A stretch of DNA of 32,315 nucleotides from Opitutales bacterium (GCA_007132315.1 SLOW01000259.1:1-32315), one strand, 5' to 3'; numbered from the stretch's first letter, positions 1,216 to 29,561 are shown. A program made the numbers and translations. Notes: generated by a model not told the origin, from the letters alone.

Positions 1216-1223
1216 GTGGCGAG

Positions 1224-1297
1224 TCGGGGTGAGAGGATTCGAACCTCCGACCTCTTCGTCCCGAACGAAGCGCGCTGCCAGACTGCGCTACACCCCG
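1224..1297 (-). tRNA. tRNA-Pro (anticodon CGG)
   Basis: Reverse complement CGGGGTGTAGCGCAGTCTGGCAGCGCGCTTCGTTCGGGACGAAGAGGTCGGAGGTTCGAATCCTCTCACCCCGA: acceptor stem CGGGGTG/CACCCCG, anticodon arm CTTCG-TT-CGG-GA-CGAAG, T-loop GGTTCGAATCC; CCA not encoded directly after the discriminator. Confidence 0.97.
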
Positions 1298-5195: not shown

Positions 5196-5843
5196 ATGGC
5201 GAAAAGAGCATTGTTTGTGTGGGGTGGCTGGGAAGGTCACGAACCGAAGGCTTGTGTGGATCTGTTCGTTCCCCTGATGGAGAAGGAGGGGTTCGCAGTG
5301 GAGGTTTCGGACTCGCTGAAGACGTTCGCCGACGCGGACTGTCTCCGGAACATGGACCTGATCGTTCCGTGCTGGACCATGGGAGATCTTCCGCCTGAGT
5401 CGGAAAAGGGGCTGTTGGAAGCGGTACGCCGGGGTACCGGCGTGGCCGGCTGGCACGGGGGGATGGGGGACGCGTTTCGAAAGAATCCTTCCTACCAGTT
5501 TATGGTGGGCGGGCAGTGGGTGGCCCATCCCGACAACATCATCGACTACACGGTGAACATCATCGACCACGAGGATCCGATCACGCGGGGGTTGTCGGAT
5601 TTCCGGATGCGGTCGGAGCAGTACTACATGCACGTCGATCCGGCCAACGAAGTCCTGGCCACGACCACCTTCGAAACCCGCAGCGCCCCCTGGGTCAACG
5701 GCACGGTCATGCCGGTGGTGTGGAAACGGCGTTGGGACCAGGGCAAGGTCTTTTATTCCTCGCTGGGTCACGTCCGGTCCGATTTCGACGTCGAAGAAGC
5801 CCGTGAGATCCAGGTGCGCGGGATGGTGTGGGCGAGCCGTTGA
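5196..5843 (+). CDS. ThuA (trehalose utilisation)-like domain protein
   Basis: [35 protein letters not shown] motifs; AGGAG RBS overlapping the dtd stop. Confidence 0.88.
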
Positions 5844-5871: not shown

Positions 5872-6552
5872 TCAGCTCTTTCCGGTTTTCAGTCGGCGGA
5901 AGTGCTTCCAGAAGTTTTCCGCCAGGAGTCGTTTCACTTCTTCGGGGTCCGGCGCGTAGCCGAGTTCCCGGCTGAGGGAGGTGACCGAAGCGCCGGTGAG
6001 ACCGCAGGGAACGATGCCAGAAAAATGGGCGAGGTCGGGGTCCCGGTTGAGCGCGAAGCCGTGCATGGTGATCCAGCGTTTCACCGCGACTCCGATGGCG
6101 GCAACCTTGCGGTCTCCCAGCCAGACCCCCGTCATGCCCTCCCGCCGGGAAGCCGCCAGGCCGAGCGCTCCGACACTGTCGATCAGCACCTGCTCGATCA
6201 GGCGCAGGTAATGGTGTAGATCCCCGGTGTTGGCGAGACTGACGATGGGGTATCCCACGATCTGCCCCGGGCCGTGATAGGTGACGTCGCCGCCCCGGTC
6301 GGTTTCGATCACCTCGACGCCGTGACCGGCGCGCTCGGTTTCCGACCAGATCAAGTGGCGCGCCGCTCCCACGCGTTTGCCGATGGTGAAGACGGGATCG
6401 TGTTCTGTGAAGATCAGGGCGTCGGGGACCCGGTTGTCGCGGCGGAGTTTCAGGCGTTCCAGCTGGCGCTCCCAGGCGGTCCGGTACGGCGTGCGTCCCC
6501 AGTCGAGGGTTTCGGCTTCCCGCCGTGCCGGCTCGGTGTGGTTTGCATTCAT
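5872..6552 (-). CDS. lipB: Lipoyl(octanoyl) transferase
   Basis: EHDPVFTIG, TDRGGDVTYHGPGQIVGYP, KVAAIGV, HGFALN, IVPCGL; ATG at 6552 chosen over the longer ORF start. Confidence 0.95.
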   Translation of the reverse strand: MNANHTEPARREAETLDWGRTPYRTAWERQLERLKLRRDNRVPDALIFTEHDPVFTIGKRVGAARHLIWSETERAGHGVEVIETDRGGDVTYHGPGQIVGYPIVSLANTGDLHHYLRLIEQVLIDSVGALGLAASRREGMTGVWLGDRKVAAIGVAVKRWITMHGFALNRDPDLAHFSGIVPCGLTGASVTSLSRELGYAPDPEEVKRLLAENFWKHFRRLKTGKS

Positions 6553-6669
6553 GCGTTCCGACAGGATTGCGCCGTCGCGTGATTTATCAAGGCCGGGTTC
6601 CGGTAATCCTCGCGGGGAACCCTCGGCGGGAGCCAACCGCCGCGGAGATCGAGAAGTTTCCCAAATGCC

Positions 6670-6698: not shown

Positions 6699-6783
6699 GC
6701 GGGGAGTCTTGGATGGCCGGGGCGTGTGCGAGCGCCGGCCCGGCATTTCATCCGCAACGGACGAATCCGCCGCCATACCGTTC

Positions 6784-7854
6784 ATGAGATCCGAAACCAA
6801 GCGCAAACCCACCTACCCGGTGATTCCGGCTCTGCGGGAGTATCTGTTGGAATTCAAGCGGGAGATGGACCTGCCGCTGGTGTACGAGGATCTGCTGGGC
6901 TTCCGGGAATCCATTCCCCTGCTCGATGCCCGGGGCAACGACACTCTGTGGGAATCGGTGATCTACGATCCCAGCGAAATGCAACGCTTGAACCGGGATC
7001 TGACCGAGATATACGCCGTGCTCAAAGTGGACGGCGACCTCAGTGTGATGCAGCACCTGTACGTCGACCGGGTCGATTTTTGCACGTTCGGCAATTCGCA
7101 CCCGTTTCGCATTCGCATCGTCAATTCGTACAACGACAACCAGGACTATTACTACGTCAAGAAAGCCGACGCCTCCCGCGTGTACGGCCTGGAGCTGGAA
7201 CACCTCCTGTCGCCCAACCGCATCAATTATCTGACCTGCGGGACGAATCTCGTGGAAGAACACATCAGCGGGATTCCGGGCGATGTGTTCATCGACGAAT
7301 GGCTCCACAGCGAACGCCTCAACCCGGTGCGGGTCGCGAAGGAACTGGTTAAATTCAACGAACGTTGTTTCATTCGACTGCTGGGGGACATGCGTTCCTA
7401 CAATTTTGTGGTGGACGTCACTCCCGATTTCGAGGGCGTGCAGGTGCGTATCCGCTGTATGGATTTCGATCAGCAGTCCTACGACGGCCGGAAGAACTTT
7501 TATCTCCCCCAGTTTTTCAAGGATAACAGCCCGCTGGTGCTCTTTTGTCAGGAACGCCTCAACCGCACCACCGCCCGCCAGTATCAGCGGGAGGAGCAGG
7601 CGTTGATCTACCGCCGGGTGCAGATCAGCGGGACCCGGCTGAACCGCCTGCTGGCGGTGATGGAAAACGAGGAAATCGCCCCGCCCGAAAACGTGGAGTC
7701 CCTGCGCGCCGCTCTCGCCGAACACTACGGGAACCCCGCCTTCGAACAGTGCGAGAGCATGGGGGAACTGGTGTCCGAGAGCCTCCGGACGCTCTCGAAC
7801 AACGTGCGCCGCCGCGACGAGGCCGCTGGCAGCCGGGTGTTCGATTTCAAGTGA
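6784..7854 (+). CDS. Conserved hypothetical protein, putative atypical (PI3K/HipA-like) kinase fold
   Basis: Protein-like composition; ordered motifs NSHPFRI...YYYVKK...LVEEH...LLGDMRSYNFVV...CMDFD. The CDS is certain, the function is inferred. Confidence 0.8.
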   Translation: MRSETKRKPTYPVIPALREYLLEFKREMDLPLVYEDLLGFRESIPLLDARGNDTLWESVIYDPSEMQRLNRDLTEIYAVLKVDGDLSVMQHLYVDRVDFCTFGNSHPFRIRIVNSYNDNQDYYYVKKADASRVYGLELEHLLSPNRINYLTCGTNLVEEHISGIPGDVFIDEWLHSERLNPVRVAKELVKFNERCFIRLLGDMRSYNFVVDVTPDFEGVQVRIRCMDFDQQSYDGRKNFYLPQFFKDNSPLVLFCQERLNRTTARQYQREEQALIYRRVQISGTRLNRLLAVMENEEIAPPENVESLRAALAEHYGNPAFEQCESMGELVSESLRTLSNNVRRRDEAAGSRVFDFK

Positions 7855-7941
7855 CGGCCCGCATTGCCTGGATGAGGTCCGGCCGGGGCCGCGGCATTTT
7901 GTCATGGCAATTGCCGGACCGGGCGCTAGGCTCGACCGCTT

Positions 7942-9402
7942 ATGAGTGAGACGTCCGCCAGTGACAACACGCATGACCTGTACGCGGTCCGCCTGGGAAA
8001 ACTCCGGGAGATGCGAGACGGAGGATTCGACCCGTTCCGGGCCGAGTTCGAACCGGCGCAAACCTCGGCGGAAGCCCTCGGGCTGTACCGCGAGGATGAA
8101 GAGAACGACGAGGTCGTATCCGTGGCCGGACGGCTGATGGTCCACCGGGTGATGGGCAAGAGCATCTTCGCCAAGATCCAGGACCGCGCCGGCCGGATCC
8201 AGCTTTACGCGAAGAAGGACGAACTCGGTGACGAGGCTTTCGCCGCGTTTAAGAAGCTCGACCTCGGCGACATCCTCGGCGCCGAAGGAACCCTGTTCAA
8301 GACCAGGACGGGCGAGATCACCGTGCGGCTGCGCGGTTTCAAGCTCCTGAGCAAGTCGCTGCGACCGCTTCCGGAAAAGTGGCACGGACTGACCGACAGC
8401 GAACGGATTTACCGCCAGCGCTACCTGGACCTGGTGATGAACGAGCAATCCCGGGAGCGATTTCGCCTCCGCAGCCGCATCATCAGGTGCATCCGGCGTT
8501 TTCTGGAGGAACGGGCGTTCATGGAGGTCGAGACGCCGGTGTTGCAATCCGTCCCCGGCGGCGCCGCCGCCCGGCCGTTTGTCACCCACTACAAGGCGTT
8601 GGGAAAGGATTTTTTCCTGCGTATCGCCCTGGAGCTTTACCTGAAACGCCTCCTGGTCGGCGGTTTTGACCGGGTGTTCGAGATCGGGAAGAACTTCCGC
8701 AACGAGGGCCTCTCCCGGCGGCACAACCCGGAATTCACCATGCTGGAGGTCTATCAGGCATACACCGATTTTCGCGGCATGATGCGCCTGGTCCGCGAGA
8801 TGATCAGCAGGATCTGCGCCGAGGTGCTCGGCACCGAGGATCTGGAACGGCCGGATGGCACCGTCATTCACCTCGGGGGCGAGTGGCGCGAAGCGCGTTA
8901 CAAGGATCTGGTCTGCGACGCCACCGGGGATCTGGACTGGTTTTCCCGCACGCGCGCGGAAAAGCTGGCGCGGGCGGGCGAGATGGGGATCGAGGTCGAT
9001 CCGGAACTGGAGGACCACGAAATCAGCAACGACGTGTTCGAGAAGCGGGTGGAGCCCACCCTGATCCAGCCGACGTTTGTCACGCACTTGCCCAAGGAGC
9101 TTTGTCCGCTGGCCAAGATCACCGCCGACGATCCCTCGACCATTGACGTGTTCGAGCTCTGCATCAACGGTCAGGAGATCGCGCCGGCCTATTCGGAGCA
9201 GAACGATCCCCTGGTGCAGCGCGAGATGTTCGAAGCCCAGGTCGGGGAGGACATTCAGAAAATGGACGAGGATTTCCTGACGGCTCTGGAACACGGCATG
9301 CCGCCCGCCGGCGGCATGGGCGTCGGCATCGACCGGCTGCTGATCATGCTGACCGGAGCGGAAAACATTCGCGACGTCATCCTCTTCCCGCAACTTCGCT
9401 AA
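7942..9402 (+). CDS. lysS: Lysine--tRNA ligase (class II)
   Basis: OB-fold N-terminus, LRPLPEKWHGL, YRQRYLDL, GGAAARPF, FRNEG, HNPEFTMLE, GMPPAGGMGVGIDRL. Confidence 0.98.
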   Translation: MSETSASDNTHDLYAVRLGKLREMRDGGFDPFRAEFEPAQTSAEALGLYREDEENDEVVSVAGRLMVHRVMGKSIFAKIQDRAGRIQLYAKKDELGDEAFAAFKKLDLGDILGAEGTLFKTRTGEITVRLRGFKLLSKSLRPLPEKWHGLTDSERIYRQRYLDLVMNEQSRERFRLRSRIIRCIRRFLEERAFMEVETPVLQSVPGGAAARPFVTHYKALGKDFFLRIALELYLKRLLVGGFDRVFEIGKNFRNEGLSRRHNPEFTMLEVYQAYTDFRGMMRLVREMISRICAEVLGTEDLERPDGTVIHLGGEWREARYKDLVCDATGDLDWFSRTRAEKLARAGEMGIEVDPELEDHEISNDVFEKRVEPTLIQPTFVTHLPKELCPLAKITADDPSTIDVFELCINGQEIAPAYSEQNDPLVQREMFEAQVGEDIQKMDEDFLTALEHGMPPAGGMGVGIDRLLIMLTGAENIRDVILFPQLR

Positions 9403-9428
9403 GCTTGGACCGGTCTCTCGAATACGTG

Positions 9429-10664
9429 ATGCCGTGGTACCTTTATCTCGCCTTTAAGCAGTTGTTTCCCTCGGGGAAATGGATCTCGTTTTTTGCGGTG
9501 ATGTCGGCGTGCGGGGTGACGCTCGGCGTGATGCTCCTGATCATCGTGCAGAGCGTGATGAACGGTTTCGGCGAGGAACTGCGCGGCAAAATCGTCGATA
9601 CCGGTGGACACATTCGCGTGGTTTCGACCGAAGGCGACATCCTGCACGACTACGAACCCATGCTGGAATGGATGGAGGCGTTCGACGCCGTGAGCGCGGC
9701 CACCCCACACGCCGAGGGGATCGTGATGGTCCAGAGCGACCGGCGGCCCTCGTTGCCGTTGGTGCGCGGCATCGATCCGATGCGCGAGAGCGGGGTGATC
9801 AACCTGAAGGATTACCTGATCGCCGGTTCCTTCGACCATCTCTACGACGACGGCGTGTTTATCAGTTCCGGCCTGGCTTCGTCGTTGGGCGCGCGCGTGG
9901 GCTCGATCATCGAGGTTTACACCCCGCTCATCCTGGAGCGAATCAGGCGGGACGAGATCCTGCTGCCCCGGGAGCTCGAAGTGGTGGGAATTTTCGAGAC
10001 CGGGTGGCACCAGGTGGACGAGAACACGCTGGTGGTCACGCTGCGGTTGATGCAGGATTTGTACGGCATGAACGGGGGTGTTCACGGCCTGACGCTGCGT
10101 CTGCACGACGGCCACGACGCCGACGCGGTCACGGCCGCGATCAATCGGGAACTGGGGCCGGACGTGTGGGCGGTTTCCTGGATGGACACCCATCAGGACT
10201 TTCTGTGGATCCTGCAACTGGAGAAAAACGTGCTGTTCTTTCTCCTGATCTTTATCGTGATCGTGGCGGCCTTTGCGATCACCAGTTCTCTTCTGATCAC
10301 GGTGGTGCGCAAGATCAAGGAGATCGGGCTGCTGGGAGCGCTCGGCGCCACGCCTCGGCAGATCGCGCTTTGTTTCTGTTTCCAGGGATTCTTTATCGGA
10401 GCGGTGGGCACGGTGCTGGGCATCGTTTCGGCGGTGGTGCTCCTGCATTTCCGCAACGACATCATCCACGCCTTCGCGCGCCTGACCGAGAGCGAGGAGG
10501 CGTTGCGGCGCTTCTACGAATTCGCCTACATCCCGCTGCACTACTCGACCAACGACTTTATTGTGATCATCACCTGCACCCTCGTCATTTCCACCCTGGC
10601 CGGCCTGATTCCCGCGCTGCGTGCGGCCCGGTTGCAACCGACGGAGGCGTTTCGCAATGAGTGA
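9429..10664 (+). CDS. Lipoprotein-releasing ABC transporter permease (LolC/E family)
   Basis: SVMNGF after TM1, large periplasmic domain, KIKEIGLLGALGA, C-terminal PALRAARLQPTEAFR; upstream of a LolD-like ATPase. Confidence 0.9.
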   Translation: MPWYLYLAFKQLFPSGKWISFFAVMSACGVTLGVMLLIIVQSVMNGFGEELRGKIVDTGGHIRVVSTEGDILHDYEPMLEWMEAFDAVSAATPHAEGIVMVQSDRRPSLPLVRGIDPMRESGVINLKDYLIAGSFDHLYDDGVFISSGLASSLGARVGSIIEVYTPLILERIRRDEILLPRELEVVGIFETGWHQVDENTLVVTLRLMQDLYGMNGGVHGLTLRLHDGHDADAVTAAINRELGPDVWAVSWMDTHQDFLWILQLEKNVLFFLLIFIVIVAAFAITSSLLITVVRKIKEIGLLGALGATPRQIALCFCFQGFFIGAVGTVLGIVSAVVLLHFRNDIIHAFARLTESEEALRRFYEFAYIPLHYSTNDFIVIITCTLVISTLAGLIPALRAARLQPTEAFRNE

Positions 10665-11352
10665 ACCGGTGGTGGAGGCGGACGACCTGTGGAAGGGATT
10701 TCGCAGCGGCGACAAGCGGATCGAAGTGCTCCGCGGCGTGGACCTCCGGCTCGGAGCGGGGGAGAGCGTGAGCATCCGGGGCGAATCCGGATCGGGCAAG
10801 ACGACGTTCGTGCACATCCTGGCCGGACTGGAAGCTCTGGACCGGGGCGATTTGCGCTGGCGTGGCGAAAGCCTGAAGGGACGTCGCCGGGCGAGCCTGG
10901 CGCGGGATCGGGCGCGCTTTCTGGGGATGGTGTTTCAGTCCTTCTATCTGATACCCGAGATGAACGCTCTCGACAACGTGCTGATGGCGCGGCGCATGCT
11001 CGGCACGCCTGACCGGACCTCCCGGGAACGCGCCCGGGAAATGATGGAACGGGTCGGTTTGGGCGAGCGGATGGACCACCTGCCGAGCCAGTTGTCGGGG
11101 GGCGAGAAGCAGCGCGTCGGTGTCGCCCGGGCCCTGGTGAACGAACCCGCCGTCATCCTCGCGGACGAACCCACCGGCAATCTCGACGAGCTTACCGGCA
11201 ACGCGATTCTGGATCTCCTGCTCTCCGTGTGCCGCGAACAGGACACCGCGCTCGTGCTGGTCACACACAACAAGGAGCACGCCCGGCGGACTGACCGCGG
11301 GTTTTTGCTGAAGCTGGGCCGCTTTGAGGAACCCGGCGAAAACGGTCAGTAA
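10657..11352 (+). CDS. lolD: Lipoprotein-releasing ABC transporter ATP-binding protein
   Basis: Walker A GESGSGKT, LSGGEKQRV, ADEPTGNLD, VTHN; overlaps the permease stop. Confidence 0.85.
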   Translation: MSEPVVEADDLWKGFRSGDKRIEVLRGVDLRLGAGESVSIRGESGSGKTTFVHILAGLEALDRGDLRWRGESLKGRRRASLARDRARFLGMVFQSFYLIPEMNALDNVLMARRMLGTPDRTSRERAREMMERVGLGERMDHLPSQLSGGEKQRVGVARALVNEPAVILADEPTGNLDELTGNAILDLLLSVCREQDTALVLVTHNKEHARRTDRGFLLKLGRFEEPGENGQ

Positions 11353-11402
11353 AGGTTTGCCAGAGAGAGACTCCGGAGGTTTGAATTGGGTTTGTCCCGA
11401 TT

Positions 11403-12338
11403 ATGACTGAGGTGAAAGGCAAGCGAATCCGTTGCGGGGTGGCCGGGGTGGGGTACCTCGGCCGTCATCACGCCCGCGTGTATCACGAACTGACCGCGTG
11501 TGAGCTGGCGGGGGTGTACGATGTGGACGCGGATCGCGCCCGGGAGGTCGCCGACCAATACGGCTGCGCCGCGTTCGCATCGATCGGCGAACTCGGGGCC
11601 GCCTGCGAGGCCGTCAGCATCGTGGTGCCTACTGATGTCCATTGTGAGGTGGCCCTGCCCCTGATGGAGGCCGGGTGTCACGTCTTGGTGGAGAAGCCGC
11701 TCTGTTACGGCCTCGAAGAGGCCGAACGCATCCTGGAGGCCGCCCAGCGGAACGATCGGTTGATTCAAGTCGGACACATCGAGCATTTCAATCCGGTGAT
11801 GGGCTACCTGGAAAATGAGGTGGATCGCCCACGCTTCATCACGGCCGACCGTCTGGCGCCGTTTCAACCCCGCGGGACCGAAGTCGGGGTGGTGCTCGAT
11901 CTGATGATTCACGACATCGGGATCATTCTCCAACTGGTGAAATCCCCGGTGGAGCGGGTCGAGAGCGTGGGCGTGAACGTGTTGTCGCCTACCGAAGATA
12001 TCGCGAACGCGCGGATCCGCTTCGAAAGTGGTTGTGTGGCGAACCTGAACGCCAGCCGGGTGAGTCTCAAGAAGCTCCGGGAGATCCGGATCTTCCAGCC
12101 CTCGGCCTACCTGAGCCTCGATTTCATGAACCAGGCCGGCCACCTGATCAAGAAAGAGGGAACCGAACTGCGCAAGGAGGAGATTCCTCTGGAACGGGAG
12201 GAACCCTTGAAACTGGAATTGCTGTCCTTCGTCAACAGCATCACCGGATCCAGCCTTCCCAAAGTCGGCGGCGCCCTCGGAAAATCGGCTTTGGAACTGG
12301 CGATCAGGATCAGCGAACAAATCCGCCGGGCCGACTGA
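11403..12338 (+). CDS. Gfo/Idh/MocA oxidoreductase, probable GnnA-like UDP-GlcNAc 3-dehydrogenase
   Basis: GVGYLGRHHAR, HVLVEKP, QVGHIEHFNP, VVLDLMIHDI, DIANARIRF, ASRVS; located immediately upstream of lpxB. Confidence 0.8.
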   Translation: MTEVKGKRIRCGVAGVGYLGRHHARVYHELTACELAGVYDVDADRAREVADQYGCAAFASIGELGAACEAVSIVVPTDVHCEVALPLMEAGCHVLVEKPLCYGLEEAERILEAAQRNDRLIQVGHIEHFNPVMGYLENEVDRPRFITADRLAPFQPRGTEVGVVLDLMIHDIGIILQLVKSPVERVESVGVNVLSPTEDIANARIRFESGCVANLNASRVSLKKLREIRIFQPSAYLSLDFMNQAGHLIKKEGTELRKEEIPLEREEPLKLELLSFVNSITGSSLPKVGGALGKSALELAIRISEQIRRAD

Positions 12339-12379
12339 ACCCGCACCCCGAATCGAACAGCGAAACTTGTTTCAGGCAT

Positions 12380-13591
12380 ATGTCTTCCTCGTTCGCTCTC
12401 CCCCCCTCATTTCCTCCCCCTTACGGGGGCGGGCGGCCCGACTTGCTCGTGGTGGCCGGCGAGCACTCTGGTGATCAGCACGCCGCCGTGGCCGTGCGCC
12501 GGTTGATGGAGCGCGATTCCGAGTTGCGTGTCGCGGCACTCGGCGGAGCCGCTCTGCGCGAGACCGGAGCCACGTTCCTCTACGATATGACCCAGTCCTC
12601 GGTGGTCGGTGTATTCGAAGTGCTGAGACATCTCGGTTTTTTTCGCGCCCTCTTCAAGCGCATCCTTGACTGGATCGAGGAGCACCGACCGCGGGCAGTC
12701 TGTTTCGTGGACAATCCGGGTCTCAATCTGCGCCTCTGTGAAGCGCTTTACCGGCGCGGACTCGCCGGGAAGGCGGGCGGCGACGTCCGGTTGCTTTATT
12801 ACATCGGCCCCCAGGTCTGGGCCTGGAAAAAACAGCGGCGCTTCAAGATGGCCCGCTGCGTGGACGCGCTGGCGGTGATTTTCCCTTTTGAAATCGATAC
12901 CTACCGGGACACCGACCTGGAAGTCAGTTTTGTCGGCCATCCGTATCTGGCGGAGGGGCACCGCCCGTTGGTCCGGTACGACCCCGACGGCTCCATCCTG
13001 CTGCTGCCCGGAAGCCGCCGCATCGCGGTGGGACGCATCCTGCCGCTTCTGTTTGACGGATTCGAACGGCTGCTGCGCGAGCGGCCCGACGAGCGCGCGA
13101 CCGTGATCACACCCGATCCCGAGGTGCGCGCCGTGGTCGAGCGCGAACTGGGTAAACGGCCGGCGTTGAAGGACAAGGTCGCCCTGGCGGACAAATCGGA
13201 TCCGGTGCGGGGCAAGGCCGTCCTGACCAGTTCCGGCACCATGTCCTTGAGTTGCGCCCTGGCGGGCATCCCCGGCGCCATCGTTTACCGCGTCGCCCCG
13301 TTGACTTACTGGCTGGGCCGGATGTTGATCACGATTCCCTACCTGGGCATCTCCAATCTGCTGCTGGAGAAACCGATGTACCCCGAATACCTCCAGGGCA
13401 GGGCCACCGCCGAGCAACTGCTCCGGGAACTGTGCGAGTGCCTCGATTCGCCGGAGCGCCTGGAGGCGACCCATTGTGATACGGCCCGGCTGCGCCGGAA
13501 GCTGTCGGCTCCCGGAAGCGAAACCATCGACCGGTGGTTGGAAAAACGGATCGGCTCACCCGCGCGGCGGAACGACGGTGGAGATAATTAG
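12380..13591 (+). CDS. lpxB: Lipid-A-disaccharide synthase
   Basis: VAGEHSGD, VDNPGLNL, PQVWAW, IFPFE, FVGHP, LLPGSR, SGTMSL motifs. Confidence 0.95.
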   Translation: MSSSFALPPSFPPPYGGGRPDLLVVAGEHSGDQHAAVAVRRLMERDSELRVAALGGAALRETGATFLYDMTQSSVVGVFEVLRHLGFFRALFKRILDWIEEHRPRAVCFVDNPGLNLRLCEALYRRGLAGKAGGDVRLLYYIGPQVWAWKKQRRFKMARCVDALAVIFPFEIDTYRDTDLEVSFVGHPYLAEGHRPLVRYDPDGSILLLPGSRRIAVGRILPLLFDGFERLLRERPDERATVITPDPEVRAVVERELGKRPALKDKVALADKSDPVRGKAVLTSSGTMSLSCALAGIPGAIVYRVAPLTYWLGRMLITIPYLGISNLLLEKPMYPEYLQGRATAEQLLRELCECLDSPERLEATHCDTARLRRKLSAPGSETIDRWLEKRIGSPARRNDGGDN

Positions 13592-16033: not shown

Positions 16034-17194
16034 ATGAACCGATCGGAAAAAGAAAAATGGATGGGGCGCGCCCTGGAGCTGGCGCGGCAGGCGTGGGGGG
16101 AAACGCATCCCAATCCAATGGTTGGCGCCGTCCTGGTGGACTACGGTCAAGTGCTCGCCGAGGGCTGTCACCGGCGCGCCGGTGAGCAGCACGCCGAAGC
16201 GGAAGCACTGGCTCAGGTCTCGGAGCCCATTTCCGATACCGCAGTGCTGTACGTCACGTTGGAGCCCTGTTGCACCACCGGTCGCACCGGGCCTTGCACG
16301 GAGGTCATCCGCGACAGCGGTGTCAGAAATGTGGTGGTCGGAGCGCTCGACCCCAACCCCGAACACAACGGCCGCGGCGTGGCCTGGCTGAAAGAGCATG
16401 GGCTCCAGGTGGAATCCGGCATCCTGCAGGAGGAGTGCGAGGACCTGAATCTCATCTTCAACCACCTCATCAACACGGGCCAACCGCTGATCGCGGGCAA
16501 GATGGCGACCACCCTGGACGGCAAAATCGCCTGTCGCACCGGGCAGTCGAAATGGATCACCGGGGAGATCGCCCGCGAGGACGTCATGCGCTGGCGGCGC
16601 CTGTTTCCGGCGGTCGCGGTGGGGACCGGTACCGTCTTGTCCGACCAGCCGCGCCTGACCAGCCGTCTGGGCGACCGAGAGTGGTGTCCGGTCCGGATGG
16701 TGTTCGACGGCATGCTGCGCACGGCGAACCAGCGGGAGTTCCCCCGACTGTACACGGATGAGTTTCGCGAGCGTACCATCGTGGTCACCACCGAGCTTGC
16801 GGGCACGGGTTACGTGCGCCGGCTGGAACGGGAGGGGATTCGGGTCTGGGTGCTCTCGGCCGAAAATTCCTTGGTTTCCTATCAGTCGTTCCGGGACCGC
16901 TGCAGCCAGGAAGAAATCGACGGGGTGTTTATCGAGGGCGGCTCGCAATTGCTTAGCGGTATGATTCAGCACGCGGCGCTGGATTACCTGTTTGTTTACC
17001 AGGCGCCGATTCTGTTTGGCGACGACAAGGCAAAAGCTTCCGTGCGCGGGCTGCGCACGGAACGCATCGACCAGGCCGTGCGACTTCGCAACACCCGTCA
17101 CGCGGTGGTGGGTGACGACCGTTTGATTCGGGGATTTGTTAAGTACCCTTCCAGCATGCAGGTGGATGAACTTCTATTTAGCCACTTCAAATGA
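16034..17194 (+). CDS. ribD: Bifunctional riboflavin biosynthesis deaminase/reductase
   Basis: PNPMVGAV, HAE, YVTLEPC...PC, TLDGKIA, SKWITG, IEGGS. Confidence 0.96.
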   Translation: MNRSEKEKWMGRALELARQAWGETHPNPMVGAVLVDYGQVLAEGCHRRAGEQHAEAEALAQVSEPISDTAVLYVTLEPCCTTGRTGPCTEVIRDSGVRNVVVGALDPNPEHNGRGVAWLKEHGLQVESGILQEECEDLNLIFNHLINTGQPLIAGKMATTLDGKIACRTGQSKWITGEIAREDVMRWRRLFPAVAVGTGTVLSDQPRLTSRLGDREWCPVRMVFDGMLRTANQREFPRLYTDEFRERTIVVTTELAGTGYVRRLEREGIRVWVLSAENSLVSYQSFRDRCSQEEIDGVFIEGGSQLLSGMIQHAALDYLFVYQAPILFGDDKAKASVRGLRTERIDQAVRLRNTRHAVVGDDRLIRGFVKYPSSMQVDELLFSHFK

Positions 17195-17825
17195 CCACAA
17201 GATAACGGAGTTCCGGCGGTTGCTGGCCGACCGCGGGCTCACCGGCATCTCCGTTCGCGGCGCTGCGGAACTCGGCGGCATGCCGCCGGTTGCCGAAACC
17301 GCCTCCGGTTTCGCCGGCAACGCCCGTTTGAAGGCGCGCGCCCTCCGGGAACGGGCCGGCCGGCGGGGCTGGGTGCTGGCGGACGACAGCGGCTTGGAAG
17401 TGGATGCCCTGGCCGGAGCGCCCGGTGTTCGGTCCGCCCGCTACGCCGGGGAAAACGCTTCCGACCCGGAGAACAACGCGCGCCTGCTGCGCGAGCTGGA
17501 AGGCGTGTCCCCCGAATGCCGAACGGCGCGGTTTCGTTGTTGCCTGGTGCTGATCTCGCCCGATGCCGAGGAATTCGTGTTCGAGGGAAGCTGTGAGGGC
17601 CGGATCGCGGAAGAAGCGTCCGGAACGGCCGGTTTCGGCTACGATCCGTTGTTCGTGCCGGAAGGGCGCAACGCCACATTTGCGGCCCTCCGGCGGGAGG
17701 AAAAGGATCGCCTCAGCCACCGCGCCCGCGCCTGGGAGAAGCTAGCCGCCTGGCTGGAAAAGCGGTCGATTATCGGCCGGGACGACGCCGAGACCAAGCG
17801 GTCGCACGGCCGGCCGGAGGAGTGA
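17166..17825 (+). CDS. rdgB: Non-canonical purine NTP pyrophosphatase (RdgB/HAM1)
   Basis: ATSNDHK, ADDSGLEVDALAGAPGVRSARY, GFGYDPLF, SHR; start overlaps the end of ribD. Confidence 0.95.
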   Translation: MNFYLATSNDHKITEFRRLLADRGLTGISVRGAAELGGMPPVAETASGFAGNARLKARALRERAGRRGWVLADDSGLEVDALAGAPGVRSARYAGENASDPENNARLLRELEGVSPECRTARFRCCLVLISPDAEEFVFEGSCEGRIAEEASGTAGFGYDPLFVPEGRNATFAALRREEKDRLSHRARAWEKLAAWLEKRSIIGRDDAETKRSHGRPEE

Positions 17826-18365: not shown

Positions 18366-18641
18366 TCAGGCCATCGCCTTGAGGCCGGTTCCCGGTTTGA
18401 ACTTCACCGTTTTGGAAGCTTTGATCTTGATGGGTTCCTTCGTGCGCGGGTTGATGCCTTTGCGGGCGGCCCGCTTGGCCACACTGAAGGTGCCGAAGCC
18501 GGCCAGCTGAACGGATTTGTCTTTCTTGACGCCTTTCTTGATTCCTTCGAGGACGGCATCGACGGAACGTTCGGCGGCGGCTTTGGATGAGTCCGCGCCA
18601 AGTGACTTCTGTACTGCTTCAACGAGTTCTGATTTGTTCAT
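18366..18641 (-). CDS. hup: DNA-binding protein HU
   Basis: MNKSELV start, GFGTF, RAARKGINPRT, VKFKPG. Confidence 0.96.
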   Translation of the reverse strand: MNKSELVEAVQKSLGADSSKAAAERSVDAVLEGIKKGVKKDKSVQLAGFGTFSVAKRAARKGINPRTKEPIKIKASKTVKFKPGTGLKAMA

Positions 18642-18846
18642 TTGTTCTTGAGTGAGGGTTCTATTAACGCGTTTCGCGTTGTTAACAGGGGCATCGAAGC
18701 GGATTATTCGATGTTTCGTCAACCTAAATCCCGCTATTTAAGCGGAATTCGTTACTTTCCTGAAAGGCTGTCGGCGTCGGGGGAGCGCGGGGGGCGGTTC
18801 GCTGGCGGGCGGTGCCCCGAACGCGTGTTCCCCGGCGGTGTGGAGC

Positions 18847-19920
18847 TTAACCGGCTTCGGCCTTTTCCTGGGCTTGCAGACAGAGCTCTGCGGCCTTGAA
18901 CGCGTGGGTTTGGGTCATGGCGTTTTCGGTGCGGTTCAGGCAATCGAGAACCAGCTGGCCGAAGTACGGGTAACCAACCTTTCCGTTAAGATCCATGTGT
19001 TGCTCGCCGTCCTGGTTCACCAGGTAGAGCTGGTTGCCTTTGCGGCCGGTGGCGATCTCGATGTATTTGCGCAATTCGATGTAGCCGTCGGTTCCGAGTA
19101 TAAACGTGCGGCCGTCGCCCCAGGTGCTCAAGCCTTCGGGCGTGAACCAGTCGACGCGGAAGTAGAAGGAGGCACCGTTGTCGCCGGCGAGCGAGGCCTC
19201 GCCGAAGTCTTCCAGTTCCGGATAGTCCGGGTGGTTGAAGTTGGCGACCCGGGCTGAATTGATCGTGGCGTCGGTCGCTCCCGTGTAGTGCAGAAACTGT
19301 TCGCACTGGTGGCTGCCGATATCGGTCAGGATGCCGCCATACTCCTTTTTGCGATAAAACCAATCCGGGCGTTTGCTCGGGTCGCCCAGGCGGTGCGGAC
19401 CGAAACCGACGACTTGCAGGACGCGGCCGATGGCGCCCTGTTCGATGAGTTCCCCGGCGAAGATGGCGCATTCCACATGCAGCCGTTCGCTGTAGTACAC
19501 GGCGTACTTGCGCCCGGTTTCGGCGACCTTTTTGCGGGCCGCTTCGAGCTGGTCCATCGAGGTGAACGGTGTCTTGTCGGTGAAATAGTCCTTGCCGGAA
19601 TCCATCACGCGGAGGCCGAGCGGGCCGCGTTGATTGGGGATGGCTGCGGCGGCCACGAGTTTGATGGCGGGGTCGTCCAGGATCTGTTCTTCGCTGGAGG
19701 CCACCTGGACCGTGGGGAATTTCTGGCGGAACGCTTCGATCTTCGCCGGATCGGGATCATAGACGTAGCGCAGGTCCGCGCCGGCTTCGATCAGCCCGTT
19801 GCACTGTCCGTGGATATGCCCGTGGTCGAGACCGATCACGGCGATGGGAAACTCGCCTTTTTCGACTACGGGTGCTGGTTTGCCCTGGGGGGCGTAGTTC
19901 ATGCCGTCTTTTGTGCTCAT
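18847..19920 (-). CDS. Gfo/Idh/MocA family oxidoreductase
   Basis: IAVIGLDHGH, GKDYFTDKTP, YYSERL, GGILTDIGSHQ, RVDWFTP. Confidence 0.9.
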   Translation of the reverse strand: MSTKDGMNYAPQGKPAPVVEKGEFPIAVIGLDHGHIHGQCNGLIEAGADLRYVYDPDPAKIEAFRQKFPTVQVASSEEQILDDPAIKLVAAAAIPNQRGPLGLRVMDSGKDYFTDKTPFTSMDQLEAARKKVAETGRKYAVYYSERLHVECAIFAGELIEQGAIGRVLQVVGFGPHRLGDPSKRPDWFYRKKEYGGILTDIGSHQCEQFLHYTGATDATINSARVANFNHPDYPELEDFGEASLAGDNGASFYFRVDWFTPEGLSTWGDGRTFILGTDGYIELRKYIEIATGRKGNQLYLVNQDGEQHMDLNGKVGYPYFGQLVLDCLNRTENAMTQTHAFKAAELCLQAQEKAEAG

Positions 19921-20781: not shown

Positions 20782-21948
20782 TCAGGTGTTGAAGGAGTTG
20801 GACAAGTCTTCCTCGACCCGGCGGACTTCCTTTTTTTGAAACGTGGAGTTTTCGATGCGCTCGCGCAGGGCTGACTCGTACTCGGCGCCTTCGATGGGCA
20901 GCTCGACGCTAGCGTCGCGGAACGCGGACAGGAGAATGGCGTTGGCCAGTTCCACGGAATGGATTCCCTCGGCGGCCGGGGCGATGAGTTCGGTTCCGTC
21001 GACGATGGCGTCCACGAAATTTTTGAGGATTTCGTTGTGCTGCCCCCCGTGCCCGCGCACGGGGATATTGACATCCCACACCGGCGGCCTGCCGAAACTA
21101 AACTCGGACCGGCGGCTGAATTCCGTCATGGGGGTTTCATTGCGCAGAAAACTGAGCCGGTCCTCTTCGACCACCAATCGGCCGCGCTCGCCCGTGATTT
21201 CCAGGCGGTTGGTGCCGGGTGCTTCGCCCGTGCTGGTGATGAAGATGCCGTTGGCGCCGTCGGCGTATTCCAGGTAGGCGGTGACCTCGTCCTCGACCTC
21301 GATGTCGTGGTGGCGGCCGAAGCCGCAGAAGGCGCGGACTTTTTGCGGCATCCCGAACATCCATTGGAACAGGTCGAGCTGGTGGGGGCATTGATTGAGC
21401 AGGACGCCGCCGCCCTCGCCCTTCCAGGTCGCCCGCCACCCGCCCGAAGCGTAGTACATTTCCGTGCGGAACCATTTTGTGATGATCCAGTTTACCCGGC
21501 GGATCGCGCCGAGTTCACCGTCCCGGATCAGCTGGCGCACCTTGCGGTAGTGGGGGTCGGTCCGCTGGTTGAACATCGCGGCGAAAACCTGCTTTGGGCC
21601 GCCGCGGTGGGCGGCGATCAACCGTTCGCAATCAGCCTTGTGCACGGAGATCGGTTTCTCGACCAGCACGTGCAGACCCGCTTCCAGGGCTTCGATGCCC
21701 AGGGTGGTGTGTGAGTAGTGGGGGGTGGCGATCAACACGGCATCGATTTCTCCCGACCGCAGCATTTCCGAGGGATCGGAAAACGCTTTCGCCTCCGGAA
21801 CCCGGTCGCGGTTGCTCTCGACCGCGTCACAAATCGCCGTGAGCCGACAGCGTGGGATTTTTCCGTCCAGTACATTGCGCGCATGGGTGGAGCCCATGTT
21901 GCCGATACCGATGATGCCCAAGCGGACGTCTGAATTGGAATTTGCCAT
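20782..21948 (-). CDS. Gfo/Idh/MocA family oxidoreductase
   Basis: LGIIGIGNMG, IATPHYSH, HVLVEKP, MFNQR, WRATWKGEGGGVLLNQCPH. Confidence 0.93.
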   Translation of the reverse strand: MANSNSDVRLGIIGIGNMGSTHARNVLDGKIPRCRLTAICDAVESNRDRVPEAKAFSDPSEMLRSGEIDAVLIATPHYSHTTLGIEALEAGLHVLVEKPISVHKADCERLIAAHRGGPKQVFAAMFNQRTDPHYRKVRQLIRDGELGAIRRVNWIITKWFRTEMYYASGGWRATWKGEGGGVLLNQCPHQLDLFQWMFGMPQKVRAFCGFGRHHDIEVEDEVTAYLEYADGANGIFITSTGEAPGTNRLEITGERGRLVVEEDRLSFLRNETPMTEFSRRSEFSFGRPPVWDVNIPVRGHGGQHNEILKNFVDAIVDGTELIAPAAEGIHSVELANAILLSAFRDASVELPIEGAEYESALRERIENSTFQKKEVRRVEEDLSNSFNT

Positions 21949-23322: not shown

Positions 23323-23700
<378 letters not shown>

Positions 23701-23706
23701 ACGATC

Positions 23707-24180
23707 ATGTCACGTCGTCGCAGAGCCGGTCGCAGGCCGATCATTCCCGATTCCCGTTACAACAGCACGTTGGTGACGCAGCTCATCAACATGATCATGG
23801 TTGACGGGAAGAAATCCACAGCCCAGCGCATTGTCTATGGTGCGTTCGAGCGGGTGAGTGAGAAACTCGCCAAGGGAGATCCGGTCGATCTCATGCTGGG
23901 CGCCATGGAAAACATCCGCCCCCGCCTCGAGGTCAAGAGCCGCCGTGTCGGCGGCGCGACCTATCAGGTTCCGGTGGAAGTTCCTTTTGAGCGGCAGCAG
24001 AGCGTCGCCTTCCGGTGGATCATCGCGTCCGCTCGCGGTCGCAAGGGTTTGCCCATGCGCGAAGCGCTGGCGGACGAGATTGTCGATGCTTACAATAACA
24101 CCGGCGCCGTCGTCAAGAAGCGGGAGGACACCCATCGCATGGCGCAGGCCAACCGCGCGTTCGCGCATTTACGCTGGTAG
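23707..24180 (+). CDS. rpsG: 30S ribosomal protein S7
   Basis: [30 protein letters not shown]. Confidence 0.99.
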
Positions 24181-24187
24181 TCAGATT

Positions 24188-26353
24188 ATGCCGAGTTCCG
24201 TCAAACAACACGAGATTTCCGCGGCCAACTGCAAGGCGCGTACCTACCCGATGGAGTTTACCCGCAACATCGGGATTGCGGCGCACATCGACGCGGGAAA
24301 AACCACGACCACCGAGCGTATCCTCTACTATACCGGGGTGGTACACAAGATCGGTGAGGTGCACGATGGCAACGCCGTGACCGACTGGATGGAGCAGGAG
24401 CGGGAACGCGGTATCACCATCACTTCGGCCGCGATTTCGTGTAGTTGGACCAACGCCACCGGTCCCTATGCCGACATCAAACACCAGATCAACATCATCG
24501 ATACGCCGGGACACGTCGATTTCACCGCCGAGGTGGAGCGTTCCCTGCGGGTGCTCGATGGAGCCGTTGCGGTGTTCTGCGCCGTGGCTGGCGTTCAGCC
24601 CCAGTCGGAAACCGTATGGCGGCAGGCGGACAAATACCGGGTTCCCCGCATTGCGCTCGTCAACAAGATGGACCGTGTCGGCGCCGACTTCCTCGGTGCC
24701 GTCAACGATATGCGGGAGAAACTCGGAGCCAACGCCCATCCGCTCTATCTCCCGATCGGCGCGGAAGAGAATTTCAAAGGCCTCGTCGACCTCGTCACCA
24801 TGCAGGCCTACTACTACGACGAGAGTGATCCGCTCGGCGTCAAGTACGACATTAAGGAGATCCCCGACGACCTGAAGGACCAGGCGCGCAAGTACCGCGA
24901 GGCGCTGATCGAAGCGATTTCCGATTACGACGACGTCATTGCCGAAAAGTACTTGGATGGCGCCGAATTCACGGAAGACGAACTCAAGACCGCGATCCGC
25001 AAAGCGACGATTTCGCTCGATTTTGTGGGGGTGATTCCCGGATCCGCCTTCAAAAACAAGGGCGTGCAGCGGGTTCTGGACGCCGTCGTCAATTACCTGC
25101 CCTCGCCGGTCGATATGCCGCCGGTGGAAGGCACCGATTCGGAAGATGAAACGGTCTCCATCCGTCCGGAGGATTCCGGCAAGACCGCCCTTCTCGCGTT
25201 CAAACTGGCGAGCGATCCGTACGTCGGCAAACTGGTTTTTGTGCGCGTGTACAGCGGAACCCTCAAGAAGGGCGACGAAGTGTACAACCCGCGCACCCGA
25301 AGAAAGGAGCGGGTCAGCCGCTTGATGCTGATGAAGTCGAACGCCCGCGAGGACGTCGATGTGGTGTACGCCGGGGATATCTGTGCCGTGATCGGGATCA
25401 AGGATGTCTCCACCGGGGACACCCTGGCTTCCCAGGGGCTCGACATTCGCCTGGAGCCGCCCTCTTTCCCGCAACCGGTCATTTCAATGTCCATCGAGCC
25501 GAAAACCAAGGCCGACCAGGAAAAGATGTCGAACGGCTTGCAGCGTCTGGCCGAGGAGGACCCGACGTTTGTGGTCAGCTCGAACGAGGAAACCGGTCAG
25601 ACCATTATCGCCGGGATGGGCGAGCTTCACCTCGAAATCATCCGCGACCGCCTGTTCCGCGAATTCAAGGTGGAAGCCGATGCGGGCAAACCGCAGATCG
25701 CCTACCGCGAAACCATTACCGGCAAGGCCGATGCCGAAGGCAAGTTCATCCGTCAGTCCGGCGGCCGCGGGCAATACGGTCACTGTGTGATCCGGGTGGA
25801 GCCCAACGAGTCCGGCAAGGGCCCCGAAATTCTCAACAAGATCGTCGGCGGCGTGATCCCGAAGGAGTTCATCAAGCCCACCATGGAAGGAATCACCGAA
25901 GCCTCCCACAACGGGGTGGTCGCGGGTTATCCGGTCATCGACTACAAGGTCGAGATCTACGACGGCAGTTTCCACGAGGTCGATTCTTCGGAAATGGCCT
26001 TCAAGATGGCCGGCATCTTCGCCTTCCGTGAAGCGATGAAAAAGGCCGGCCCGATCCTCCTCGAACCGATCATGAAAGTCGAGGTCACCACGCCCGAGGA
26101 ATACCAGGGCGACATTATGGGCGACCTGAACCGCCGCCGCGGCCGGATTCAGGAAATGGGCAGCAAAGGCAACGTGTGCATCATCAACGCCCAGGTTCCG
26201 CTGGAGACCATGTTCGGTTACGCCACAGACGTCCGGTCGCTCAGCAAGGGCCGGGCCAGCTATTCCATGGAACCCTCCCATTTTGAACAGGTTCCCGCGA
26301 GCCTTCTGGCGAACATCGTGGAAACCTCCTCTCGCGCTCCCGCGAGAACGTAA
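24188..26353 (+). CDS. fusA: Elongation factor G
   Basis: [57 protein letters not shown]. Confidence 0.99.
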
Positions 26354-26363
26354 CAGGTGTGTC

Positions 26364-26672
26364 ATGAGCGATCAAAAGATACGAATTAAACTCAGAGGTT
26401 ACGATTACCGGGTCATCGACCAGTCCGCTTCGGATATTGTCGAAACCGCGAAGCGTTCCGGCGCGCGGGTCTCCGGCCCGGTTCCGTTGCCGATCCGGAT
26501 CGTGAAGTACACGGTCAATCGCTCCCCGCACGTGGACAAGAAATCGATGGACCAATTCGAAATGCGCACCCACAAGCGCCTGATCGATATCCTCGATCCC
26601 ACCGCACAGACGGTCGATGAGCTCAAGAAGCTCAACCTGCCGGCCGGGGTGGACATCACCATCAACGTCTGA
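26364..26672 (+). CDS. rpsJ: 30S ribosomal protein S10
   Basis: [33 protein letters not shown]. Confidence 0.99.
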
Positions 26673-26738
26673 GCGCCAACCGTTGTTTGGAGTCCGGAAT
26701 TTAAGCAATACACGAGAGTATAGAACAATACATACAGC

Positions 26739-26800
26739 GACTAACGTAGGTTGTTAAAAGTATAAACGGGAGCCTCGCTCCCACCTACCGCTTAGCAGTC
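26739..26800 (+). promoter_or_regulatory. Candidate structured RNA leader upstream of rplC
   Basis: gtaggt (26746-51)/acctac (26783-88) encloses the hairpin gggagc-ctc-gctccc (26768-82); outer gact/agtc pairing reaches the ATG. Confidence 0.4.
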
Positions 26801-27448
26801 ATGAAATTAGCACTATTGGGTAAGAAACTGGGTATGACCCAGATCTACGACAGTGACAACCAGCTGGTTCCGGTCACTGTGATCCAGGCCGGACCATGTC
26901 CGGTTGTCCAGGTAAAGAATCCGGAGCGGGACGGTTACCACGCAATCCAGATCGGGTTTTCGCCGCAAAAGGAATCACGCCTGACCAAGGGCAAACTCGG
27001 CCACATTCGCAAGGTCGGCGTCGACCCGGTTTCACGTCTGCAGGAAATCCGGCTCGGAGAAGCTCCGGAGCAGAAGGAAGGGGACGTCCTCAACGTCTCC
27101 CTGTTCAGTGAGGGTGAATTGATCGACGTGGTGGGCACCACCAAGGGCAAGGGATTCCAGGGGGTGATGAAGCGGTTCCGGACACGGGGCGGTCCGGCCA
27201 GCCACGGTTCGATGACCCACCGGCGGATCGGTTCGATCGGTCTCTGTCAGACACCGGGACATGTCTTTAAGAATCAGAAGATGCCCGGACACATGGGGGC
27301 GGTGCGCCGCACCGTGCAAAATCTCAAAGTGTTGAAAATCGATGCCGAGAAGAACCTTCTGCTGATCCGCGGCAACGTTCCGGGAGCCAACGGCGACACC
27401 GTTCTGGTGCGCGCGGCCAAGAAAACCCGCAAGGCCCAGGCCGCATAA
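26801..27448 (+). CDS. rplC: 50S ribosomal protein L3
   Basis: GKKLGMTQ, PVTVI, KGKGFQG, SHGS, MPGHMG. Confidence 0.99.
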   Translation: MKLALLGKKLGMTQIYDSDNQLVPVTVIQAGPCPVVQVKNPERDGYHAIQIGFSPQKESRLTKGKLGHIRKVGVDPVSRLQEIRLGEAPEQKEGDVLNVSLFSEGELIDVVGTTKGKGFQGVMKRFRTRGGPASHGSMTHRRIGSIGLCQTPGHVFKNQKMPGHMGAVRRTVQNLKVLKIDAEKNLLLIRGNVPGANGDTVLVRAAKKTRKAQAA

Positions 27449-27464
27449 CCGAGAGAGTTGATCG

Positions 27465-28103
27465 ATGAAGTTAAAGGTTTACACAGCGGATGGCTCGTCG
27501 AGCCAGGAGAAAGATTTCCCCGGAATTCCCTCGTTTGAGGGAGGAACGGGACAACAGGCGGTCAAGGACGTGGTCACCGCGATGCGGGCGAATGCCCGCC
27601 AGGGCGATGCCAACACCAAGACCCGCGGCGAAGTCAGCGGGGGCGGCAAAAAGCCCTGGCGCCAAAAGGGGACAGGCAACGCCCGGGCCGGGAGCCGGCG
27701 ATCGCCCATTTGGGTTGGCGGCGGCACGGTCTTCGGACCCCGGACCCGCGATTACTCCAAGAAGGTGAATCGCAGGGTCAAGAGCCTCGCCCTGCGGCGC
27801 GCGTTTTACGATCTGGCCAGCGGAGGCGGCCTCCACGTGATCGAAGAGTTTCGGGTGTCTCCCGCGAAGACGAAGGTTCTGGCCGGGACGCTGGACCGCA
27901 TCGTACCAAAGGGACGTTTGCTGCTGGTGGACGATTCGTTCACCGACGAGACCGTCATGGGCGGGCGCAACATCGCCCGGGCTCAGTTTCAGGAAGCCGA
28001 CACGCTGAACACCTACGATCTCGCCCTCTACCAGAACATCCTGATTTCCGAAAAAGCTCTGGAGCGTCTCCTGAAGCGAATCAACGGAGGAAACGAATCA
28101 TGA
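27465..28103 (+). CDS. rplD: 50S ribosomal protein L4
   Basis: TKTRGEVSGGGKKPWRQKGTGNARAGS, GGGTVFGP. Confidence 0.99.
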   Translation: MKLKVYTADGSSSQEKDFPGIPSFEGGTGQQAVKDVVTAMRANARQGDANTKTRGEVSGGGKKPWRQKGTGNARAGSRRSPIWVGGGTVFGPRTRDYSKKVNRRVKSLALRRAFYDLASGGGLHVIEEFRVSPAKTKVLAGTLDRIVPKGRLLLVDDSFTDETVMGGRNIARAQFQEADTLNTYDLALYQNILISEKALERLLKRINGGNES

Positions 28104-28387: not shown

Positions 28388-28421
28388 GGGTTGTCGAGAC
28401 CCGCGAAGGAGAATAACGACC

Positions 28422-29267: not shown

Positions 29268-29271
29268 GGTT

Positions 29272-29541: not shown

Positions 29542-29561
29542 CCCGCCCGCCCGATAGTCCG

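Follow-up and report, generated by a model that had tools for sequence, protein, structure and literature searches.

We analysed a 32,315-nt stretch of DNA from an Opitutales bacterium (GCA_007132315.1 SLOW01000259.1:1-32315; hereafter the window, meaning the whole stretch) and focused on a gene for a protein of 356 amino acids (aa) that lies directly upstream of lysS, the gene for lysyl-tRNA synthetase (LysRS). It is an ordinary chromosomal gene, vertically inherited and without a conserved partner gene, and its product is probably a further member of the SEAE1 family of kinase-like proteins. We consider it likely that this stand-alone protein is an ATP-dependent phosphotransferase of the cytoplasm, built on a PI3K/PI4K/HipA-type core, and would act, not as a toxin, on a conserved cellular substrate other than LysRS. 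An original prediction, made from the sequence of the window, had proposed an atypical kinase, similar to PI3K and HipA, that annotation had missed. This held up in its kinase part and in the lack of annotation (invariant active-site residues, the match with SEAE1, a lead from a language-model atlas, and no Pfam or NCBIfam family), whereas the family itself is no longer new, having already been described, by computation only, in a 2026 preprint.

The five motifs from which the kinase had been proposed were all found in place, namely an S-x-x-P loop, YYYVKK (residues 122-127, nt 7147-7164), LVEEH (residues 156-160), a D-x4-N loop (LLGDMRSYNFVV, in which the stretch from G201 to N207 occupies nt 7384-7404) and MDFD (residues 226-229, nt 7459-7470). 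Across 19 diverse full-length homologues, down to 29% identity, N104, P107, F108, K126, D129, S131, G135, E158, G163, L199-M203, N207 and D227-Q231 were invariant, and S105 and R109 in the putative ATP-loop were kept in at least 90%. Core motif residues were likewise retained in 136-138 of 137-139 near-full-length homologues (at least 98%), including K126 (137/138), R132 (136/138), D227 (137/137), F228 (137/137) and D229 (138/138), and the segment that follows keeps Y240, P242 and N248 at 98% or more. The conservation of the Lys, Asp, Asn and Asp residues, which had been put forward as a check on the kinase proposal, was thus confirmed in both sets (invariant in the 19 homologues and at least 98% in the 139). 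Ratios of nonsynonymous to synonymous substitution (dN/dS) between related loci were 0.012-0.181 in nine of ten pairs, the tenth having a saturated dS. This motif pattern is more than chance, and the gene is under strong purifying selection.

From its N-terminal side, the conserved part of the protein presents a glycine-free beta-hairpin loop, a Lys, a helix with an Arg, a hinge-like EEHIxGIPG, a helix leading into GD-x4-N, two short strands, DFD and a short conserved segment, which is the order given for the core of the PI3K superfamily in the available text of PMC7619004. We infer an active phosphotransferase. Judged by motif order, FGNSHPFRIRI would be the loop ahead of the beta-3 Lys, and the position of LVEEHISGIPG suggests the hinge. 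According to the same text, PI3K/PI4K kinases (PF00454) share with the window protein an ATP-loop free of the glycine motif, the Lys, an Asp and an Asn five residues apart, and an Asp-Phe pair that opens a short activation segment. Unlike them, the window protein has the loop GDMRSYN, with M-R where R-H is expected, and D229 in place of the Gly of DFG; moreover, it is a bacterial, stand-alone protein of 356 aa without helical or C2 accessory domains and without a match to PF00454. A PI3K/HipA flavour of the kinase-like core is nevertheless plausible.

SEAE1 (WP_147203046.1), from Segetibacter aerophilus of the Chitinophagaceae, is presented in the accessible part of the preprint as the type of a new kinase-like family (bioRxiv 10.64898/2026.09.18.752743, 24 Sep 2026), with 7,867 BLAST homologues that belong chiefly to Bacteroidota and Verrucomicrobiota. 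No other relevant work emerged from the literature searches. The same part of the preprint reports no significant Pfam match for SEAE1 and an HHpred E-value of only 250 against PF00454, while its structural comparisons always returned lipid kinases and PI3Ks as the closest characterised relatives. An AlphaFold3 model (predicted template modelling score, pTM, 0.88) is described there as a bilobal kinase fold in which ATP, in its usual orientation, and two Mg ions are held by K140, R146, D216, N221, D241 and D243, with the usual Lys-Glu pair missing. The homologues are all called non-secreted, a putative lipid kinase is suggested, and the neighbours listed are ATP-binding cassette (ABC) substrate-binding proteins and fructose-bisphosphate (FBP) aldolase.

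We found the six active-site residues of SEAE1, as numbered in that text, exactly at positions 140, 146, 216, 221, 241 and 243 (K, R, D, N, D and D) in a 369-aa open reading frame (ORF) of Chitinophagaceae (L071), and their equivalents in the window protein (K126, R132, D202, N207, D227 and D229) lie at a constant offset of 14 from the SEAE1 numbering. The window family further resembles SEAE1, as far as the preprint could be consulted, in the spacing of these residues, in its range over Bacteroidota and Verrucomicrobiota, in the neighbours of its Chitinophagaceae clade and in the lack of a Pfam match; it differs in the setting of the window copy, which is found in an Opitutae-type genome with lipB and lysS on either side and no PAP2 phosphatase nearby. 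Because the active-site numbering matches exactly and the Chitinophagaceae-clade neighbours agree, the window protein is probably an orthologue within the SEAE1 family, a placement drawn from residue numbering, range and neighbours.

Taken together with the preprint's model of a homologue, the motif order suggests how such an enzyme may work. Mg-ATP would be held between the N-lobe and the C-lobe. The N-lobe would contribute the ATP-loop FGNS105xPFR, the beta-3 Lys K126 and the helix-C Arg R132, with K126 and R132 holding the ATP phosphates and a salt bridge between R132 and D229 standing in for the usual Lys-Glu pair. In the C-lobe, N207 and D227 would bind two Mg ions, and D202 may act as the base that takes a proton from a substrate hydroxyl. 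The substrate would be a conserved cellular molecule, for which a non-protein hydroxyl (a lipid head group or a soluble metabolite) seems more likely than a protein. Fold, catalytic roles and substrate class are all predictions of this kind. Direct observations of the present analysis are the conservation of the motifs, the size of the family, the selection on it, its lack of synteny and its correspondence with SEAE1.

Comparisons with curated families gave no assignment. Neither Pfam nor NCBIfam has a family for the window protein, its sequence does not place it in PF00454 or in the HipA families of Pfam, and 19 members searched singly against Pfam returned no kinase family and no PF00454 at E <= 10. 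Pfam likewise gave no membership of the eukaryotic protein kinase (ePK), APH/ChoK, Kdo/WaaP or UbiB families, and hhalign probabilities against E. coli SrkA, WaaP and UbiB were 0.1-0.3%, within noise. Against the PDB, the family profile and a profile of the core (residues 95-262) each had 0 matches at E <= 10, and a search with the N-terminal 95 aa retrieved nothing. The profile comparison with HipA that the original prediction had recommended was also negative, with hhalign probabilities of 0.07% against E. coli HipA and 0.16% (score 16.5) against eight aligned HipA sequences, from E. coli and from plasmid records; a score of 16.5 was also reached by 15 of the 30 shuffled controls. A language-model resource, the Atlas, was queried with a 65%-identical homologue (P0100), and the nearest named clusters were HipA_2, HipA_C and PI3_PI4_kinase (scores 0.88-0.90), which we take as a lead only towards the HipA_2/PI3_PI4_kinase clan. 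PF07804 and PF20613 are placed in the Pfam kinase clan CL0016 by the accessible text of the preprint.

Four candidate similarities were rejected. Pfam H2TH scored E = 0.051 and 14 bits against a cut-off of 34.7, and the best whole-protein match in the PDB, Rab27B at E = 0.65, was not significant. With phmmer, the C-terminal 104 aa (nt 7540-7851) matched polyubiquitin chains in the PDB down to E = 1.6e-7 with no single stretch passing, which we read as weak scores summed over tandem repeats, because two-unit ubiquitin chains reached only E of about 1. One hhalign run set GDMRSYNF on the D-x-H-x-K-N-F loop of HipA and was discounted, since its score was within noise and a second run picked another region.

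Several points weigh against an active kinase of this type. No sequence or profile method (Pfam, NCBIfam, PDB profiles or hhalign) ties the family to any kinase, and the Atlas scores fall in the range that the Atlas itself grades as a lead only. The identity with SEAE1 comes from numbering, range and neighbours and not from an alignment with WP_147203046.1, and the fold is taken second-hand from the part of the preprint that is accessible. The catalytic loop reads DMR for DRH and the Mg-binding motif DFD for DFG, so activity is not assured. Finally, the protein is acidic (isoelectric point 5.3) and lacks any transmembrane or hydrophobic segment, and the range of the family departs from that of the known bacterial inositol-lipid gene clusters as given in the available text of PMC9246714.

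The failure of every sequence and profile method to reach a kinase would suit an unrelated enzyme with no kinase fold, in which the resemblance of motifs is coincidental. We regard this as highly improbable, given five motifs in kinase order, the invariant Lys, Asp, Asn and Asp, the exact correspondence with a family that the preprint, in its accessible part, independently models as a kinase fold, and the Atlas lead to the same clan. The altered DMR and DFD motifs, together with the missing Lys-Glu pair in the SEAE1 model as described in that part of the preprint, could instead indicate a kinase-like fold with other chemistry (transfer of AMP or glutamyl groups) or none (a pseudokinase scaffold that binds nucleotide); AMPylation and glutamylation by kinase-fold proteins are on record according to the KINtaro abstract. 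This is very unlikely in our judgement, as the Lys, Asp, Asn and Asp needed for phosphotransfer are all invariant and the SEAE1 model is reported there to have two Mg ions and a normally oriented ATP.

The gene order of the window raised another possibility, that of a Ser/Thr protein kinase resembling HipA which controls LysRS or some other part of the translation machinery, in either a housekeeping or a toxin role. The stop codon indeed lies 87 nt before the start of lysS on the same strand, as had been noted originally, with no terminator seen between them, and the nearest named Atlas clusters are HipA_2 and HipA_C. HipA and HipA_2 (PF07804 and PF20613), the language-model clusters nearest to the window family, resemble the window protein in their Asp-x4-Asn catalytic loop, D309 and N314 of HipA being invariant in the eight-sequence alignment. 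A precedent exists in Caulobacter, where HipA1 and HipA2 are reported to phosphorylate LysS in the available portion of PMC7029023, and in Daejeonella the copy is followed, about 1.1 kb further on, by serS on the opposite strand (L072; 1 of 14 loci scanned more widely).

We compared the neighbourhoods of 80 loci (L001-L080) of the at least 599 that were found in a scan of one genome per species (Opitutae and Bacteroidota); this set did not extend to contigs from the relatives with 82-85% identity (P0003-P0009). Downstream DNA of at least 1.5 kb was present in 69 of the 80, and Pfam scans covered the nearest neighbours of 78 of 79 loci upstream and 72 of 74 downstream. None of the 80 loci had lysS near the kinase-like gene, at E <= 1e-10 or at E <= 1e-3, and no aminoacyl-tRNA synthetase occurred among the 72 downstream or 78 upstream nearest neighbours. 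In fact, no neighbour of the window gene was conserved among the 80 loci, lolCD and lpxB included, so the suggested link to the downstream envelope genes failed along with that to LysRS. Because the adjacency to lysS is unique to the window among the 80 loci, the LysRS link was dropped: the position beside lysS is probably a local accident without functional connection to LysRS.

The toxin reading fared no better. No small antitoxin-like ORF adjoins the gene, in agreement with the original observation, as its neighbours are lipB and lysS, and none of the 78 upstream neighbours had a HipB-like Pfam match at E <= 1e-6; by comparison, six of seven plasmid HipA loci with gene annotation carry a helix-turn-helix (HTH) or antitoxin gene immediately upstream. 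By tblastn, neither the 72,556 plasmid records nor the 50,697 phage records contained a match to the kinase-like family, and PADLOC models gave none either. Unlike HipA toxins, then, the window family has no antitoxin neighbour, stays off plasmids and phages, is highly conserved and vertically inherited, and has no profile similarity to HipA. With no Pfam HipA match, an hhalign score within shuffled noise and the phosphorylation of LysS in Caulobacter itself contested (PMC8262856, in the portion available), we give very little credence to a HipA-like regulator or toxin.

Other neighbours were mostly restricted to single lineages. Upstream, a Peripla_BP_2 periplasmic binding protein was found in 6 of 78 loci, all of the Chitinophagaceae clade, and LytTR regulators in four Pontibacter; downstream, class II FBP aldolase was found in 5 of 72, again all of the Chitinophagaceae clade, and PntB in three. 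Wider clustering placed a 6-phosphogluconate dehydrogenase upstream in 11 of 80 loci. An apparent upstream paralogue signal from the neighbour clustering was traced to long spurious ORFs, an artefact of the GC-rich DNA.

Since the structures closest to SEAE1 are lipid kinases according to the available text of the preprint, we also considered a phosphatidylinositol or inositol-lipid kinase that makes phosphorylated inositol lipids in free-living Bacteroidota and Opitutae. The preprint text further mentions a PAP2 phosphatase near SEAE1 in Segetibacter, the catalytic loop and DFD are similar to the DRH and DFG elements of the PI3K superfamily (PMC7619004, in the portion available), and a phospholipid methyltransferase lies downstream in 1 of 72 loci (L021). 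However, only 4 of 20 Segetibacter genomes have the PAP2 arrangement in that text, and no PAP2 was found here among the 78 upstream and 72 downstream neighbours. According to the available text of PMC9246714, inositol-lipid gene clusters occur commonly in Bacteroides, Prevotella and Parabacteroides but are infrequent in Sphingobacterium or missing from it, whereas the range of the window family, unlike that of these gut-Bacteroidales clusters, is centred on Opitutia, Cytophagia and Chitinophagia. None of the 80 loci carries a Bacteroidales label, most being Opitutia, Cytophagia or Chitinophagia, and an acidic protein without a membrane segment offers no further encouragement. On balance the present data are neutral to slightly negative for the lipid-kinase idea, and an inositol-lipid kinase is unlikely.

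The Legionella effectors LepB and MavQ are bacterial lipid kinases with divergent PI-kinase-like cores that evade sequence searches, and both are secreted and act on host lipids. Unlike them, the window family is cytoplasmic, its homologues being called non-secreted in the accessible part of the preprint, and occurs in free-living bacteria. A more elaborate version, which we hold to be quite unlikely, is a housekeeping PI3K-like kinase of free-living bacteria that acts on a lipid head group or another cellular hydroxyl, that shares about 55% identity across Bacteroidota and Opitutae, and that in the lineage of the window is perhaps also co-transcribed with lysS-lolCD-lpxB and tied to envelope biogenesis. 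If the housekeeping PI3K-like reading were true, the family would give bacteria, outside the effectors, an equivalent of the phosphoinositide-type signalling or membrane homeostasis of eukaryotes, and a lipid substrate would mean PI3K-type lipid phosphorylation outside eukaryotes and pathogen effectors.

Leaving these lipid-directed variants aside, the likely phosphotransferase of the SEAE1 type belongs to a large family. All 8000 candidates scored in a word-indexed search passed E <= 0.001, which corresponds to at least 8000 homologous clusters at 90% identity; the best 120 of these were 63-100% identical, without a Pfam domain and named 'hypothetical protein' wherever they had a name. An exhaustive search of representatives at 50% identity gave 631 matches at E <= 1e-3 and 97 at E <= 1e-30, and a search started from the distant member P0201 added one protein only. 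Longer fused forms were limited to three singletons, too rare to inform function; one branch of the family, represented by P0123 (491 aa, a cluster representative at 50% identity), begins with a zinc-ribbon (PF13453, E = 1.5e-10), which a linker of about 150 aa joins to the kinase-like part.

By record title, the 80 loci comprise 50 Verrucomicrobiota (38 Opitutia), 29 Bacteroidota (11 Cytophagia, 8 Chitinophagia and others) and one Citrobacter, and the Chitinophagaceae copies are about 55% identical to the window protein. A quick maximum-likelihood tree with 95 rows placed 49 of the 50 Verrucomicrobiota rows and the group of the window on one side of a branch with a Shimodaira-Hasegawa-like approximate likelihood ratio (SH-aLRT) support of 94, the exception being L056 (Verrucomicrobiales), which fell with Bacteroidota. 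The Verrucomicrobiota rows form a single clade that tracks family-level taxonomy. When the tree was rooted on long-branched distant members, a root that is uncertain, this clade was nested among Bacteroidota lineages, which hints at one old transfer between the phyla, again subject to the root, with vertical descent afterwards. Two labels disagreed with their sequences: the 'uncultured Citrobacter sp.' record (L069) holds a Chitinophagaceae-type copy with Chitinophagaceae neighbours (binding protein and FBP aldolase), and a record labelled 'Akkermansia' (L013) holds an Opitutaceae-type copy, both probably being mis-binned contigs of metagenome-assembled genomes (MAGs).

The family thus combines at least 8000 clusters and at least 599 species genomes with strong constraint and an intact-looking kinase active site, and yet has no curated profile. 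Automatic annotation calls every member a 'hypothetical protein' because there is no curated profile or experimental data to draw on. Discovery of the substrate would reveal a new enzyme activity in the core metabolism of two abundant environmental phyla. For the window itself, the practical outcome is the label 'SEAE1-type kinase-like protein' for this gene, without the LysRS link.

Table 1. Coordinates of the kinase-like gene, its sequence features and its flanking elements in the window
Feature	Coordinates (nt)	Strand	Basis
Kinase-like gene, SEAE1-type family, 356 aa, stand-alone	6784..7854	+	ORF and translation
N-terminal region, residues 1-95, with conserved K8, L21, Y34, W56 and L73	6784..7068	+	139 homologues
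Putative ATP-loop FGNSHPFRIRI, residues 102-112	7087..7119	+	N104, S105, P107, F108, R109
YYYVKKADASR, with putative ATP-binding Lys K126 and helix-C Arg R132	7147..7179	+	Conservation and SEAE1 correspondence
Putative hinge LVEEHISGIPG (E158, H160, G163)	7249..7281	+	E158 and G163 invariant in 19 sequences
Predicted catalytic loop LLGDMRSYNFVV, residues 199-210, with D202 (catalytic base) and N207 (Mg)	7378..7413	+	L199-M203 and N207 invariant
MDFDQQ and conserved activation-type segment to N248	7459..7527	+	D227 (Mg) and D229 (pairs with R132), predicted
Spacer between kinase-like gene and lysS, 87 nt	7855..7941	+	No recognisable terminator or RNA element
lysS, class II lysine--tRNA ligase	7942..9402	+	Pfam tRNA-synt_2 and OB fold; NCBIfam lysS
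lipB, divergent upstream neighbour	5872-6636	-	No small antitoxin-like gene adjacent

The translation that yields 356 aa begins at an ATG at 6784 and ends at a stop codon at 7852-7854. A longer reading from a TTG at 6670 is possible; we prefer 6784 because the 356-aa homologues begin there and conservation sets in at residues 6-8. The G+C content of the window is 62%, and that at third codon positions (GC3) is 0.79 in the kinase-like gene, close to that of the neighbouring genes, and 0.83 in lysS. An antisense ORF of 881 aa (6748-9393, minus strand) that runs across the kinase-like gene and lysS has a GC3 of only 0.64 and was rejected as a composition artefact. Within the 87-nt spacer we found no terminator-like site and no Rfam match, and its predicted fold was not more stable than shuffled sequences (z = -0.79).

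Downstream, a lolC/E-type permease gene (start 9405) comes only 2 nt after lysS and overlaps a lolD-type ATPase gene (10621-11352); beyond it lie a UDP-GlcNAc 3-dehydrogenase-like GFO/IDH/MocA gene (11403-12338) and lpxB. This stretch (7942-13591), from lysS through lpxB, looks like one transcription unit that unites a tRNA synthetase with outer-membrane biogenesis genes. Co-transcription of the kinase-like gene with lysS is possible in the lineage of the window, and would be weak as evidence for function.

Four GFO/IDH/MocA oxidoreductase genes occur within the 32 kb (1412-2437, 11403-12338, and 18847-19920 and 20782-21948 on the minus strand), and a ThuA-like gene lies at 5196-5843. Members of both families also adjoin the kinase-like gene at a small number of Opitutaceae loci (L004 and L017), which may reflect no more than their abundance in these genomes. 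The other content of the window is of a housekeeping kind, with tRNA-Pro(CGG) (1223-1297, minus strand), an RdgB/HAM1 NTP pyrophosphatase (17136-17825, plus strand), an HU/IHF-like protein (18366-18722, minus strand) and an rpsL-rpsG-fusA-S10 ribosomal protein cluster (23323-32018, plus strand).

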